A stretch of 64,000 nt of DNA from Firmicutes bacterium CAG:194 (lineage in GTDB: Bacteria; Bacillota; Clostridia; Lachnospirales; Lachnospiraceae). Where the stretch lies: positions 100,637 through 164,636 of the forward strand of contig HF995233.1 of the NCBI GenBank assembly GCA_000432915.1, written 5' to 3'. Both the position numbers and the translations under genes were made by a program. Below, piece after piece: positions 2,146-52,446 of the stretch (its first letter is position 1; every line of letters starts with the position of its first letter). The notes below the pieces were generated by a model that did no database searches, was not told where the DNA came from, and worked only from the letters and a program-made list of their open reading frames with translations.

Positions 2146-2430
2146 ATGTTAAACTTAAACCTTCAATTCTTCGCTCATAAAAAGGGAGTAGGTTCTACTA
2201 AGAACGGTCGTGACTCTGAGTCTAAGAGATTAGGTGCTAAGAGAGCAGACGGACAGTTTGTAAAGGCTGGAAATATTTTATACAGACAGCGTGGTACTAA
2301 GATCCATCCGGGTGTTAATGTCGGACTTGGTGGAGATGATACATTATACGCATTAGTAGACGGTGTTGTTAGATTCGAAAGAAAAGGAAGAGATAAAAAA
2401 CAGGCTTCCGTTTATCCGGTAGAAGACTAA
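2146..2430 (+). CDS. rpmA: 50S ribosomal protein L27, with the N-terminal propeptide that Prp cleaves
   Basis: [24 protein letters not shown]. Confidence 0.95.
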
Positions 2431-2436
2431 TTACGA

Positions 2437-2478
2437 AATTGCGTGGAGCCTCAAACTAACGTTTGAGGCTCTTTGTTG
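2437..2478 (+). terminator. Intrinsic terminator after rpmA
   Basis: Hairpin GAGCCTCAAAC-taa-GTTTGAGGCTC followed by TTTGTTGTT. Confidence 0.7.
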
Positions 2479-2497
2479 TTGAATGTGAAAATTTTGA

Positions 2498-3817
<1,320 letters not shown>

Positions 3818-3830
3818 TGAGGAGCTACAG

Positions 3831-4121
3831 ATGACAAGCAAACAAAGAGCATATTTAAAAGGACTTGCCATGAATCTGGAACCGATCTTCCAGATTGGAA
3901 AATCAAGTCTGACACCGGAAGTAACGGAAGCGATCGGAGAAGCATTTAACACAAAAGAACTGATCAAGATCACCGTTCTGAAAAACTGTATGGATGATCC
4001 GAATGAGATCGCACGTATGCTTGCAGAACGAACACATGCACAGGTTGTACAGGTGATCGGCAAGAAGATCGTTCTGTATAAAGAATCAAAGGAGCATAAG
4101 AAAATTGAGCTGCCAAAATAA
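3831..4121 (+). CDS. yhbY: YhbY/CRS1 (CRM domain) RNA-binding protein
   Basis: MTSKQRAYLKGLAMNLEPIFQIGKSSLT. A GAGGAG RBS precedes the ATG at 3831. Confidence 0.8.
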   Translation: MTSKQRAYLKGLAMNLEPIFQIGKSSLTPEVTEAIGEAFNTKELIKITVLKNCMDDPNEIARMLAERTHAQVVQVIGKKIVLYKESKEHKKIELPK

Positions 4122-5387: not shown

Positions 5388-5745
5388 TATATCAAAGAAA
5401 ATGGCGCTTGCAGCGATCGACGCACTGGAAGATAAAAAAGCAGAAGATATCCGTGTGATCGATATCAGCGAAGTTTCCCCGTTAGCCGATTATTTTATCA
5501 TCGCAAACGGAACAAACCGCAATCAGGTACAGGCACTTGCTGACAATGTGGAAGAACTTTTAGGCAGACTCGGATATGAAAGAAGACCAATTGAGGGCTA
5601 TGACAGTGCAAACTGGATTCTGCTTGACTTTAAAGATATTATTATCCATGTTTTTGATAAGGAAAGCAGAAGCTTTTATGATCTGGAACGCATCTGGAGA
5701 GATGGAAAAGAAGTTACGGAAGAAGACTTAAAGAGCGCAGAATAA
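5377..5745 (+). CDS. rsfS: Ribosome silencing factor RsfS
   Basis: ADYFIIANGTNRNQVQALADNV. AAAGGAG RBS upstream, with the start at 5377. Confidence 0.9.
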   Translation: MTNSISKKMALAAIDALEDKKAEDIRVIDISEVSPLADYFIIANGTNRNQVQALADNVEELLGRLGYERRPIEGYDSANWILLDFKDIIIHVFDKESRSFYDLERIWRDGKEVTEEDLKSAE

Positions 5746-33788: not shown

Positions 33789-33815
33789 TCATTCCATAAA
33801 GTATCATATACTCTA

Positions 33816-33985
33816 AATGGGTATTTCCTATAACCGCAATCACACTTGACTCCCCTGCGATTTGTCAAAGCACATATTGCACGTGCTCCGGCCGCTAGAA
33901 AGCGTAGCGGTCTCTCCGCACGGCAAGTGCTTTGCAAATCTCGGTCGTCTACGCTATCGATTGCTCATTATAGGAAATACCCATT
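33816..33985 (-). repeat. Palindromic hairpin-forming repeat element, copy A (MITE/REP-like, inverted orientation)
   Basis: Conserved ends (AGCAATCGATAGCGTAGACGACCGAGATTT ... AAATCGCAGGGGAGTCAAGTGTGATTGC on the minus strand). Outer 18-bp inverted repeat AATGGGTATTTCCTATAA. Confidence 0.6.
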
Positions 33986-34066
33986 TTCTGTATATATTTA
34001 ACTGTGTAAAAAAAGATAAAATAATAATGACTGCAATATTTATTATTAATATTGATAGAACAATAA

Positions 34067-34238
34067 AGCAGGAAGCCCTATATAAAAAGCAATCGATAGT
34101 GTAGCCGACCGAGATTTATCGTTCCCTTTACCGGAGCGAGCGATCACAAAGCTTTTACGTGACGGGAGCCCGGTAAAATGGGAACGAGATAAATCGCAGG
34201 GCAGGCAAACGTGATTGCTTTTATATAAGGCTTCCTGC
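34067..34238 (+). repeat. Palindromic hairpin-forming repeat element, copy B
   Basis: AAGCAATCGATAGTGTAGCCGACCGAGATTT ... AAATCGCAGGGCAGGCAAACGTGATTGCTT. Outer 26-bp inverted repeat GCAGGAAGCCCTATATAAAAGCAATC. Confidence 0.6.
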
Positions 34239-34279
34239 GTATTATTTTACACCTTAAATATTACAATTTATAAAAACAT

Positions 34280-35443
34280 CTATTTTACCACACGAACACG
34301 GAACACGCCTTCGATGTTCTTCAACTTCTCGACGATATCCTCTGTCACAGGCTGCTCTAAATCCATCATGGTATAGGCAACTTCACCTCTTGATTTGTTC
34401 ATCATATCGGTGATGTTCATGCCCTGATCTCCAAAAGTTGCTGTAAACTTTGTGATCATGTTGGCAACATTTTTATGGAAAATTGCTACACGGCTTGCCT
34501 GTGCGCAGACGCCCATGTCAAGAGCCGGATAGTTTACACTGTTTTTGATATTGCCGTTTTCCAGATAATCGGAAAGTTCTGCAACAGCCATGACTGCACA
34601 GTTATCTTCTGATTCTTCTGTGGAAGCGCCAAGATGCGGTGTTACGATACAGCCCGGCTGACCTGCAACAGTCGGATTTGCAAAGTCCGTCATATATCTC
34701 TTTACCTTACCGGATTCGATTGCTTTTAATAAAGCAGGCTCATCCACTAAGATGTCACGTGCATAGTTCAGGATCACTACGCCATCCTTCATCATGGAAA
34801 TGGCTTCTGCATTGATCATGCCCTTTGTAGAATCCAGAAGCGGTACGTGAATCGTGATGAAATCACATTCTGCGTAGATCTCTTCTACGTTTAATACATG
34901 CTTTACGCTGCGGTTCAGGTTCCATGCTGCATTAACGGATAAGTATGGATCATAGCCATATACTTCCATACCCAAATGGATCGCTGCATTTGCAACCTTG
35001 ACACCGATCGCACCAAGACCGATGATACCAAGCTTTTTGCCTGCGATCTCAGTACCTGCGAATTTCTTCTTTTCCTTTTCCTGTGCTTTTGCAATGCCTT
35101 CGTCATCTTTATCGGATTTTACCCATTCGATACCACCAACGATATCACGGCTTGCAAGCAGCATACCTGCCAGCACAAGCTCCTTTACACCATTGGCATT
35201 TGCACCGGGTGTATTGAATACGACGATACCTTTTTCCGCACATTTATCAAGCGGGATATTATTGACACCTGCACCGGCCCTTGCAACAGCAAGCAGCTTT
35301 TCAGGTAACTCCATATCATGCATGGCTGCACTTCTGACTAAAACACCATCCGCTTCCTTGATATCTTCTGTTTTTTTATAATCTGCACCGAAACCGTCCA
35401 GTCCAACCTGCGCGATCGGGTTTAAACAATAATACTGAAACAT
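34280..35443 (-). CDS. serA: D-3-phosphoglycerate dehydrogenase
   Basis: D-2-hydroxyacid dehydrogenase motifs (GLGAIGVKVA) plus a C-terminal ACT domain, 387 aa. Confidence 0.85.
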   Translation of the reverse strand: MFQYYCLNPIAQVGLDGFGADYKKTEDIKEADGVLVRSAAMHDMELPEKLLAVARAGAGVNNIPLDKCAEKGIVVFNTPGANANGVKELVLAGMLLASRDIVGGIEWVKSDKDDEGIAKAQEKEKKKFAGTEIAGKKLGIIGLGAIGVKVANAAIHLGMEVYGYDPYLSVNAAWNLNRSVKHVLNVEEIYAECDFITIHVPLLDSTKGMINAEAISMMKDGVVILNYARDILVDEPALLKAIESGKVKRYMTDFANPTVAGQPGCIVTPHLGASTEESEDNCAVMAVAELSDYLENGNIKNSVNYPALDMGVCAQASRVAIFHKNVANMITKFTATFGDQGMNITDMMNKSRGEVAYTMMDLEQPVTEDIVEKLKNIEGVFRVRVVK

Positions 35444-50836: not shown

Positions 50837-51439
50837 TTAACTACAAACACTTATGATCTCTTTCATCCCGATCCCGCAGGATAAGAGATGGATGAGGCTT
50901 TCTTTTGCATATTCGAATCGGTCAAATAGTGCTTTCTTTGCTTCCGGATCTTTGTAAACCTTCCAGTAGCCTGTGTATAAGCTGTTTTTTCCCTGCTGTG
51001 ACACAAATCCTTCCACGTCCTCCGGTGGATATCCGAGGATCAGTCCCAGTTCATGCGGAAAATCCTTCTTCTCCAGCATGTATTTCTGATATCGTCTGCA
51101 ACAGGTATCTAAAATGCAATCAGGTGTGACATTGTCATAACCGAATCTGGTAAGAAGCTCTGCTACGTCTTTCCGGCTCAGATAGCTTGTAAGCTGATTT
51201 TCCTGATATAGCAGAAAAAGCACTCTGCCGTCCAAAAGTCCCATCTGATAAACGGATATGCCACTGTTTTCCAAAATATCATACATCGCCTTGTAAGCAT
51301 CCAGTCCGATACTGAACAGATTGGAAATCTTCATTCCGGTGATCAGTGGTGCACATTGCATTGCCAGCTCAACTTCTACCTGATTGATACTTTCTTCCAT
51401 CGACATCTGCTTCAGAATTTTCCAGGTATCCCGACTCAA
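50837..51439 (-). CDS. Hypothetical protein (possibly DUF3793 family), TTG start
   Basis: 200 aa, co-oriented and 39 nt upstream of the flavodoxin gene. GAGGAGG RBS. Confidence 0.3.
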   Translation of the reverse strand: MSRDTWKILKQMSMEESINQVEVELAMQCAPLITGMKISNLFSIGLDAYKAMYDILENSGISVYQMGLLDGRVLFLLYQENQLTSYLSRKDVAELLTRFGYDNVTPDCILDTCCRRYQKYMLEKKDFPHELGLILGYPPEDVEGFVSQQGKNSLYTGYWKVYKDPEAKKALFDRFEYAKESLIHLLSCGIGMKEIISVCS

Positions 51440-51671
51440 ATCACAGCCTCCTCTCTTATTGGTTAGTTGTTTCTAACCTACTAAAATGATATAGAATGAT
51501 TTACGTTTCGTCAAGGGTTTGAACTGATAATATTTTTCACTTATAAAAGGGAAATTATACACAGCGGATGGGCTGTGTTTTGAATTACAGACAGGAAAAT
51601 TTACTGTTTTAACAAAAAAACATGAAAAATATATAAGGGATATGGGCATATATGTAATACAAGATATAAAA

Positions 51672-51926
51672 AAGCAGGATTCACCTATAATAAGCAATCG
51701 ATAGTGTAGCCGACCGAGATTTGCAAAGCCCTTGCCGTGCTCCGGCCACCACGCTTTTTGGTATATGTAACGGATTTACACAGTAAATCCGTTATGTAGC
51801 CTCTGTGCATCGGCGAAGCCGATTTCACATGCACAGAGGTTCGAGTGGCTGGAGCACATGCAATAGGTGCTTTTCGCAAATCGCAGGGTAGGCAAACGTG
51901 ATTGCGTTTATAGATGGATCCTGCTT
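51672..51926 (+). repeat. Palindromic hairpin-forming repeat element, copy C (longest, with nested internal hairpins)
   Basis: Same conserved ends as copies A and B (AAGCAATCGATAGTGTAGCCGACCGAGATTT ... CAAATCGCAGGGTAGGCAAACGTGATTGC) with outer inverted repeats. Confidence 0.6.
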
Positions 51927-51936
51927 TTATAAAATT

Positions 51937-52446
51937 TTATGCATAATTCCCGCAATGTAAAACCGGGGTTTTGTGATCTGTCTGCTGGAGGGATTTCTGC
52001 ACATCGATCACGCGCTGGTTGCTGCTTCCCTTCCAGCGAAGCTTTGTATCGCGCAGCTCTTCCACATATTCGCCGTCTACCAGTACATTGACATATTTCA
52101 TGACCGGATCATGCATCACGTTTTCCCAGACATCACCGGTGTAAAGCCAGATTGTCTTATTTGGAAATTTCTCGTGGATCTCTGTCATAAGAGTACGGAC
52201 TCCTACACGGTTTGCTGCATGCAGTGGGTCTCCGCCGGAAAATGTAATTCCGGAAATATACGGTTTGGAAAGCTGGTCAAAGATCTCTTCCTTTGCCGCA
52301 TCATCAAATTCCAGTCCGCCATTCGGATCCCATGTCACAGGATTCTGACAGCCCTTGCAGCAATGGCTGCAGCCTGCCACCCATAATACAACTCGCAGAC
52401 CATCGCCATTCAGCATATCATCTTTGGTAATATTATGATATCTCAT
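51937..52446 (-). CDS. nrdG: Anaerobic ribonucleoside-triphosphate reductase activating protein (radical SAM)
   Basis: GCSHCCKGCQNP cluster motif. Confidence 0.9.
   Translation of the reverse strand: MRYHNITKDDMLNGDGLRVVLWVAGCSHCCKGCQNPVTWDPNGGLEFDDAAKEEIFDQLSKPYISGITFSGGDPLHAANRVGVRTLMTEIHEKFPNKTIWLYTGDVWENVMHDPVMKYVNVLVDGEYVEELRDTKLRWKGSSNQRVIDVQKSLQQTDHKTPVLHCGNYA

Follow-up and report, generated by a model that had tools for sequence, protein, structure and literature searches.

What is the long palindrome that lies between nrdG and a DUF3793 gene in Firmicutes bacterium CAG:194, and why does the same site look different in closely related strains? We studied a 64,000-nt stretch of this genome (contig HF995233.1, positions 100,637 to 164,636), which we call the window and whose positions we count from its first letter. 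The palindrome is the longest of three copies of a repeat in the window, and we refer to these as copies A, B, and C, with the palindrome as copy C. We consider it fairly probable that copy C is a long variant of a low-copy interspersed palindromic repeat, similar to SPRITE, BOX, or ERIC, that supplies or occupies bidirectional intrinsic terminators. Judging from its position and shape, it is most likely a bidirectional factor-independent terminator and a structure that protects 3' ends. Copy C and its neighbors are laid out as follows:

51667-51931, + strand (polarity set by the core motif in the 5' arm): copy C, long form, the whole hairpin; 265 nt, near-perfect
51667-51690, no strand: left outer stem arm, site-specific; holds an A-run at 51668-51673
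51691-51722, + strand: conserved 5' core arm, TAAGCAATCGATAGTGTAGCCGACCGAGATTT; invariant except at two covarying positions
51723-51761, + strand: 5' strand of the variable interior stem, a GCAAAGC-type subfamily cassette plus the apical loop remnant ACGCTTTTTGG
51762-51845, + strand: optional 84-nt apical module, comprising sub-hairpins 1 and 2
51846-51877, + strand: 3' strand of the variable interior stem
51878-51907, + strand: conserved 3' core arm, AAATCGCAGGGTAGGCAAACGTGATTGCGT
51908-51931, no strand: right outer stem arm; holds a T-run at 51925-51928
51937-52446, - strand: nrdG (anaerobic ribonucleotide reductase activase, Fer4_12), with its stop codon at 51937-51939
50837-51439, - strand: DUF3793 gene, the downstream neighbor
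51514-51486: promoter-like site of the DUF3793 gene, TTGACG-17-TATCAT, about 150 nt beyond copy C

Copy C is in a terminator position behind nrdG, because the stop codon of nrdG is just 5 nt from the hairpin and a run of six Ts follows the hairpin on the nrdG strand. The nrdG transcript would carry the reverse complement of copy C's + polarity. Read this way, the GCAGGA...TCCTGC stem of copy C is followed by TTTTTT: the A-run at 51668-51673 is, on the minus strand, a U-run after the hairpin. An earlier note made from the letters of the window (the sequence-only reading) had instead placed copy C directly upstream of the putative promoter of the DUF3793-flavodoxin operon, but that promoter-like site is much further away than the nrdG stop codon, and we do not regard it as the relevant context.

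Between copy C and the promoter-like site there is also a small conventional hairpin (51559-51578, ACACAGC-GGATGG-GCTGTGT). It has a T-rich tail on the + strand and ATAATTT on the - strand, and variants of it are found at the same place in two related genomes (loci L003 and L011, see below). Either an older terminator of nrdG or a hairpin with a regulatory role in the DUF3793-flavodoxin operon would fit.

The outer inverted repeats, the two sub-hairpins, and the copies A and B that the sequence-only reading had picked out are all present in the sequence, as found with a repeat finder, BLAST, and alignment. The outer inverted repeat of copy C (51667-51690 and 51908-51931) is 24 nt long and 88% complementary, and AAAGCAGGAT occurs exactly at both ends (51671-51680 on the + strand and 51918-51927 on the - strand). 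Sub-hairpin 1 (51768-51794) has arms of 12 nt (51768-51779 and 51783-51794) and sub-hairpin 2 (51800-51839) has arms of 11 nt (51800-51810 and 51829-51839), with 100% complementarity in both; sub-hairpin 2 contains an inner hairpin, ATCGGC-GAA-GCCGAT. The minimum free energy predicted for a 281-nt RNA that contains copy C is -133.5 kcal/mol for the + strand and -122.0 kcal/mol for the - strand, versus -72 and -68 kcal/mol for shuffled versions (z is about -13, or -12.9 for the + strand), and none of 200 shuffles folded as well. We rejected the open reading frames (ORFs) that run across the element (such as 51685-51879 on the - strand) as coding sequences: the only peptide that they have in common is imposed by the core, they have no conserved start, and their variable parts covary as stems.

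A hidden Markov model built from the short copies has exactly three matches in the window, namely copies A, B, and C, and the repeat extends far beyond these. We scanned one genome for each of 185,579 species for the exact sequence of the 5' arm, and only three genomes matched, all from the Lachnospiraceae: Kineothrix sp. MSJ-39 (11), the metagenome-assembled genome UBA6452 (9), and "uncultured Roseburia" UMGS1351 (1). There are at least 8-11 exact-core copies per genome, and the three genomes contributed 16 loci. A scan of metagenomes added at least 120 contigs, which are from the human gut wherever the name of the record states a source. Among the matches listed, which are the loci that our counts of copies, clusters, and covariation cover, we found 116 complete copies (88-90 distinct sequences) in about 29 site clusters as defined by their flanks. 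As far as these scans show, the family is confined to a small clade of human-gut Lachnospiraceae that includes Kineothrix sp. MSJ-39, UBA6452, UMGS1351, and the organism in the window. Kineothrix sp. MSJ-39 and UBA6452 are both collinear with the window, at 89-96% identity, and neither is identical to it.

We did not find a match in collections of phages and plasmids with a BLAST search for distant similarity, and there was a single match among viral contigs (L017, or IMGVR_UViG_3300029623_000200). This contig is classed as viral and has a copy at 817-1001. A neighboring ORF appears to be the same leucyl-tRNA synthetase gene as in contig L109 (805 versus 811 amino acids, at a shared site), and L017 is probably a misclassified or prophage-adjacent fragment of a host genome. 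In Rfam, no family other than a tRNA elsewhere matched the window at the gathering thresholds, and at E ≤ 10, both loci had only chance-level matches to microRNAs and snoRNAs. Our literature searches did not turn up any description of this palindrome family.

Most copies of the element sit where a transcript would end. For the 26 site clusters whose neighbors could be called, 17 are between convergent ORFs, nine are behind a gene of a co-directional pair, and none is consistently between divergent genes. The distance from the stop codon to the outer stem is typically 10-50 nt, and several convergent gaps are wholly occupied by the element (e.g., with 27 + 17, 19 + 23, or 24 + 12 nt remaining on the two sides). 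Among 41 distinct outer stems, 32 have a T-run, and 30 have both an A-run and a T-run. We propose that these elements are terminators because the copies follow stop codons, often fill convergent gaps, and would form a stable hairpin with a U-run on either strand. Whichever strand is transcribed, the RNA should form a very stable hairpin with a long perfect closing stem and then a U-run. The outer stem and the U-run may thus act as a two-way intrinsic terminator that shields the 3' ends of both transcripts, and the long double-stranded stems would be candidate substrates for RNase III.

The alignments show that the element has four layers. The outer stem (17-25 bp) is different at each genomic site, is almost perfectly paired, and usually begins with an A-run and finishes with a T-run. 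Inside it are the core arms, of about 30 nt each (TAAGCAATCGATAGYGTAGMCGACCGAGATTT, at 51691-51722 in copy C, and AAATCGCAGGGKAGKCAARCGTGATTGCGT, at 51878-51907). These pair via short helices, with invariant, asymmetric internal loops between the helices, and both arms contain a GTAG motif, on the same strand. Next is the interior stem, which is specific to each subfamily and has at least three sequence types. Finally, there may be an apical module of 83-84 nt with two hairpins, which enters the apical loop on its 3' side. Conservation is lowest at the termini of the element and highest in the interior core.

The sequence-only reading had proposed that the length of the element varies by insertion of complete hairpins while the scaffold stays intact. 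The scaffold is indeed conserved, as the core is common to all copies, and complete hairpins are indeed gained or lost. The two sub-hairpins are not independent, though: they come and go as one unit of 83-84 nt. The lengths from core to core are 126-130 nt (73 copies) or 208-214 nt (43 copies), with nothing in between among the 116 copies, and the elements are about 180 or 265 nt long overall. The module's motif was found 48 times, always inside an element and always with the same polarity, and we rejected independent mobility of the module because it is never seen outside an element. The microhomology at its junctions is only 1-3 nt.

Within the window, copies A and B are of the short form and lie near a serA-like gene:

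33815-33986, - strand: copy A, short form, after an ORF of 109 amino acids; found by BLAST of the region of copy C against the window
34065-34239, + strand: copy B, short form; the stop codon of the serA-like gene is 41 nt away
34280-35443, - strand: serA-like dehydrogenase gene

These two copies form a head-to-head pair, 78 nt apart, between the 109-amino-acid ORF and the serA-like gene. All three copies share the conserved asymmetric core, and in a three-way alignment, a single insertion of 84 columns sets copy C apart from copies A and B. The arrangement at 33815-34239 differs between species. The pair is also found in UBA6452, where copy B contains the module. In Kineothrix sp. MSJ-39, where the locus is cut, the copy next to serA has the outer stem of copy A and the opposite orientation.

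In most copies, a hexamer that resembles a -10 box (TATAAT, TAGAAT, TGTAAT, GATACT, etc.) is found directly 5' of the core, with its mirror image on the 3' side; in the window, it is at 51685-51690 and at 33967-33972 (- strand). Only copy A has a plausible -35 box beside it. The hexamer could be the remnant of an inward promoter, a protein site, or merely the AT-rich inner end of the stem.

The differences between copies are compensatory, a point that the sequence-only reading had wanted checked. It named two findings that would count against it, a lack of further copies and interior changes that break the pairing, and neither was borne out. Among 44 representatives of the short form, two-sided changes occur in 32 of 51 consensus pairs (covariation score 0.494 versus 0.151), and 95.4% of cells are paired, as compared to 76.7% if columns are shuffled and 32-41% if the partners are slid. 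Among 24 representatives of the long form, two-sided changes occur in 39 of 78 pairs, including pairs in both hairpins of the module; for instance, one pair is G:C or A:U in 14 versus 10 copies, and another is A:U or U:A in 14 versus 10 copies. Such changes occur in every stem. Even within the core, 13 of 44 copies have A:T in place of a C:G pair, which is never broken, and eight of 44 have C:G in place of a U:A pair. In one subfamily, GCGATC/GATCGC replaces GCAATC/GATTGC in helix P1.

The sequence-only reading took such variation as a sign of selection on secondary structure rather than on sequence. We agree that pairing is maintained, but about 60 nt of the core arms, including all of the unpaired positions and asymmetric loops, is invariant in 44 of 44 short and 24 of 24 long representatives. 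Sequence and structure are both constrained, because pairing is kept by two-sided changes while the loops of the core never vary. Loops that are asymmetric and never vary, together with the fixed polarity, imply a putative partner, such as a protein, that is specific for the sequence and polar as to the strand. We can imagine, as a rather doubtful extension of the terminator reading, that the element is a strand-polar and self-palindromizing "mobile terminator." A putative protein would read the loops and the module on folded single-stranded DNA or RNA, and the outer stem would arise by templated inverted copying of the flank, with no direct duplication. If true, this would be a mode of spread, and of the birth of terminators, that has not been described for small repeats in bacteria.

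The strong covariation might instead reflect a strand-specific structured noncoding RNA or a cis-acting element of 3' untranslated regions, whose invariant loops bind a protein or RNA partner and whose stems are covarying helices. We think this is improbable, although the strand evidence is ambiguous. Besides the covariation, several features would fit such an RNA: asymmetric loops that do not vary, a module whose polarity is fixed, and a TATAAT-like box that is often directly 5' of the core. So would the three or four invariant G.U pairs that close helices: owing to these few pairs, it is the + strand that has the more stable fold in 86 of 88 distinct copies, with an average advantage of 8.0 kcal/mol. 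However, a bias in mismatches is absent. The isolated mismatches represent 18 distinct G.T events versus 16 A.C events, and the paired changes are overwhelmingly from Watson-Crick to Watson-Crick, transversions included, with few one-sided G.U states.

The orientation of the element relative to transcription is also arbitrary: at co-directional sites it is sense in some and antisense in others, tandem sites hold both orientations, and it flips between strains at a single locus. There is no conserved -35 box or promoter, no match in Rfam even at the permissive threshold, and copies are often deleted. The neighboring genes have no functional theme either. They include an HSP90/Dak1 ORF, a SpoU methylase, AraC and LysR regulators, and an RNase T-like exonuclease; AICARFT (PurH-type), an acetate-kinase-like protein, LeuRS, GatB, and a histidine kinase; and a release factor, a transketolase, PRPP synthetase, the SerA-like dehydrogenase, and NrdG. 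As these housekeeping genes are unrelated, we also rejected the idea that the copies mark a regulon.

The arbitrary orientation and the Watson-Crick-to-Watson-Crick changes point more to a palindrome that acts at the DNA level, or to a hairpin whose orientation does not matter, than to a classical strand-specific RNA gene. The sequence-only reading had allowed for either an RNA or a cruciform-forming DNA site, and it is the first of these, in its strand-specific form, that loses ground. Our conclusion is that the hairpin as such functions regardless of its orientation and that the core is read in a polar way by a putative partner.

The locus between nrdG and the DUF3793 gene illustrates how the element differs between strains. 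Here, the window, Kineothrix sp. MSJ-39 (L003), and UBA6452 (L011) have collinear flanks that are 93-96% identical. The window's element is of + polarity and combines a GCAAAGC-type interior with the module. That of Kineothrix sp. MSJ-39 is of the opposite polarity, with the same type of interior but without the module. In UBA6452, it has the opposite polarity and a different interior, of the copy B type. Among metagenome contigs with the same outer stem as in the window, seven have the module and one does not. We also searched for more distant orthologous loci via homologs of the DUF3793 protein. Their identity falls from 98-100% to 80%, 75%, and about 50%, and none of them gave an informative empty site. 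In contig L138, whose DUF3793 protein is 80% identical, the element combines a copy-B-type interior with the module, and the contig begins exactly at the element.

Metagenome contigs often begin or end inside the element (L138 does so at position 1, and many loci have the motif within 150 nt of the end of the contig), so long and short alleles in the assemblies need to be confirmed with reads.

Across the family, strains differ in the orientation of the element at five site clusters and in the presence of the module at five. Internal deletions between GATT(T)GC, GCAA, or TAGG microhomologies have occurred independently at several sites; their products are plain hairpins, made up of the outer stem and what little is left of the loop. 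There are also chimeric copies whose left outer arm is from one site and whose right outer arm is from another (L075, L091, L107, and L009 at 5522-5719), which implies that recombination between copies has caused rearrangements (deletions, inversions, or duplications). The element is thus reshaped from strain to strain by flips, cassette swaps, loss of the module, and decay. The sequence-only reading had looked to orthologous loci for evidence of mobility; these loci differ in orientation, module, and interior, as described above, but a clean empty site was not found.

We searched for empty sites by pairing flanks across 138 sequences (137 loci and the window), a sample that is biased towards filled sites, and found no clean one. 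Four candidates were rejected: all are internal microhomology deletions that keep remnants of the core. In 65 distinct pairs of flanks, we found no consistent direct target-site duplication beyond the palindrome. The flanks pair right up to a conserved TAA/GT junction, with no remnant of a loop, which speaks against the idea that the element simply inserted into the loops of terminators that were already there.

These results bear on whether the element is a classical MITE, or miniature inverted-repeat transposable element, that is moved in trans by the transposase of an insertion sequence (IS). The core arms would be its imperfect terminal inverted repeats, and its targets would be existing terminator hairpins, which became the outer stems. 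The element does look like a MITE in that the whole of it is an inverted repeat and its core arms, at about 30 bp, form an imperfect one. Furthermore, identical interiors occur with different outer stems, and vice versa, and the two size classes recall those of Correia elements. The location at the ends of genes is also seen for the small repeats of pneumococci (PMC3049150). Nevertheless, we think that a MITE is unlikely. The outermost ends are the least conserved part of the element, direct target-site duplications do not flank the palindromes, and all of the short alleles in our sample, which favors filled sites, keep core remnants instead of being clean empty sites. The stems that are complementary up to the TAA/GT junction, without loop remnants, are unexpected if the element inserts into the loops of hairpins. 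And the phage and plasmid collections had no match.

No transposase gene was seen beside any site among the flanking ORFs, and in the loci that we collected, there was no distant pair of a 5' arm and a 3' arm around a transposase. The one gene that lies between two inverted copies is in L016, where an ORF of 312 amino acids (2928-3866) has copies with the same outer stem on both sides (2301-4074); it is also found in L022. Its product has no match in Pfam or NCBIfam, and it has a "YEHQS" motif, which we take to be reminiscent of PD-(D/E)XK nucleases of the Rpn type. Since this ORF recurs only at its own orthologous site (in L022), we rejected it as a general mobilizing partner.

A folded single-stranded DNA recombination site is less probable still. 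Such a site would be analogous to attC, the attP hairpin of CTX phage, or the REP substrates of RAYT: a tyrosine recombinase or an HUH/Y1 enzyme would pick the strand from the asymmetric loops and extrahelical bases. This would be consistent with the conserved proximal arms, the asymmetric unpaired bases, and the terminal structure of variable length, as well as with the fixed polarity, the GTAG motif in both arms, the orientation flips, and the cassette swaps. But the copies are not in cassette arrays and sit after ordinary housekeeping genes; inspection of the ends did not reveal a consensus like the R box (GTTRRRY); both GTAG motifs are on one strand, unlike in a REPIN; and no gene for a recombinase or Y1 transposase was seen in the flanks that we examined.

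Finally, the element is very unlikely to be an inverton, that is, a phase-variable switch with the outer inverted repeats as recombination sites and a promoter inside: the five site clusters do have the interior in both orientations when closely related strains or metagenomes are compared, but the outer repeats differ at every site and so offer no common site for a recombinase, the conserved interior has no promoter-like site, inversion of a nearly palindromic interior would alter little, and no invertase gene was found among the flanking ORFs.

We therefore return to a repeat that supplies or occupies terminators. We suspect that it is mainly processes acting on the DNA that preserve and remodel its palindrome: the element's own arms may recombine or switch templates with each other, copies may undergo gene conversion via their conserved cores, and microhomology or the hairpin may stimulate deletions. 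Such DNA-level mechanisms, which we infer for the reshaping between strains, would explain the flips, the gain and loss of the module, the swapping of cassettes, the Watson-Crick "compensation," and the products of decay.

Several points weigh against the terminator reading. The hairpin at 51559-51578 lies about 90 nt beyond copy C, so the element is perhaps not the sole stop signal for nrdG. The "loop" would be a structured insert of 130-215 nt, versus 3-8 nt in canonical intrinsic terminators; a simple scan with a terminator consensus does not call the element; and about a quarter of the outer stems lack a good T-run. If the element were purely a terminator, this would not account for its asymmetric loops and G.U pairs, both invariant, or for the fixed polarity of its module. 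That deletion derivatives are so frequent suggests that the cell can do without individual copies. As to the spread of the element, neither a clean empty site nor a target-site duplication was found.

Catalogs of small structured repeats are good for Proteobacteria and streptococci, but the dominant Firmicutes of the gut hardly figure in them. Here, a lineage of Lachnospiraceae carries an element like BOX or SPRITE at the positions where terminators are expected. The element breaks short-read assemblies and creates structural variation between strains (inversions, 84-nt indels, and chimeras) within DNA that is 93-96% identical, and its variants could serve as markers for strain typing. Because Kineothrix sp. 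MSJ-39 is an isolate, this is a tractable system for studying how terminator hairpins are born and remodeled.

How does the element compare to known repeats? The closest parallel in position is SPRITE from Streptococcus pneumoniae, which has 30 copies per genome, with an AT-rich duplex of 18 bp and a T-rich tail (PMC3049150). SPRITE is strongly enriched between convergent genes, near the 3' ends of coding sequences, and has been proposed to be co-opted as a terminator; a target-site duplication or empty site was not established, and no matching IS was found (PMC3049150). Our element is likewise of low copy number, has a long stem duplex and then a T-rich tract, with AAAA and TTTT at its ends, and lies between convergent genes, and for it too, a target-site duplication or empty site is not established and no matching IS was seen among the flanking ORFs. 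It differs in being a multi-helix hairpin of 180 or 265 nt with invariant asymmetric loops, site-specific outer stems, and an optional module, and in belonging to a different phylogroup of hosts. This comparison is by description, and Rfam has nothing similar.

BOX, also from S. pneumoniae, has a boxB module that can be absent or present without disturbing the rest of the fold, and extended stem-loops are predicted in its transcripts (PMC3049150). Both are modular structured repeats with a dispensable module. In contrast to BOX, with its terminal inverted repeats, target-site duplications, and variable number of boxB modules, our element has zero or one module, its ends are not conserved, and no duplication was found.

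ERIC (or IRU) and Correia elements (CREE) are 100-170 bp long, imperfectly palindromic, and found in intergenic regions that are transcribed; they have size classes due to indels, and their RNA hairpins affect the stability of mRNAs, via RNase E for ERIC and RNase III for Correia (reviewed in PMC10969869). The resemblance is that of an imperfect intergenic palindrome with size classes from internal indels. But ERIC and Correia elements have conserved terminal inverted repeats (and Correia elements have a TA duplication) and are from Proteobacteria, whereas the termini of our element are its least conserved part.

The REP, BIME, and REPIN families are palindromes at the ends of genes that stabilize mRNAs or act as terminators and are hot spots for recombination. 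Like REP and BIME, our element forms gene-end palindromes and inverted pairs (copies A and B) and has a GTAG motif. It is 180-265 nt long with both GTAGs on one strand, while a REP is 20-40 nt and is present in hundreds of copies, and a REPIN has its conserved REPs at the tips. No RAYT gene was seen in the flanks that we examined, and genome-wide, the presence of RAYT was not searched for. The attC sites of integrons are hairpin recombination sites with conserved proximal arms, unpaired bases that define the strand, and a terminal structure of variable length. Our element also has conserved proximal arms, unpaired bases, and a terminal structure whose length varies, but its copies are dispersed behind housekeeping genes, and no cassette array, integrase, or R-box consensus was seen.

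Overall, the element is of the same broad kind as SPRITE, BOX, ERIC, Correia, and REP/BIME but is a member of none of these families. What is unusual about it is the combination of variable ends with an invariant core, outer stems that are perfectly paired and specific to each site, and a polymorphic module of fixed polarity.

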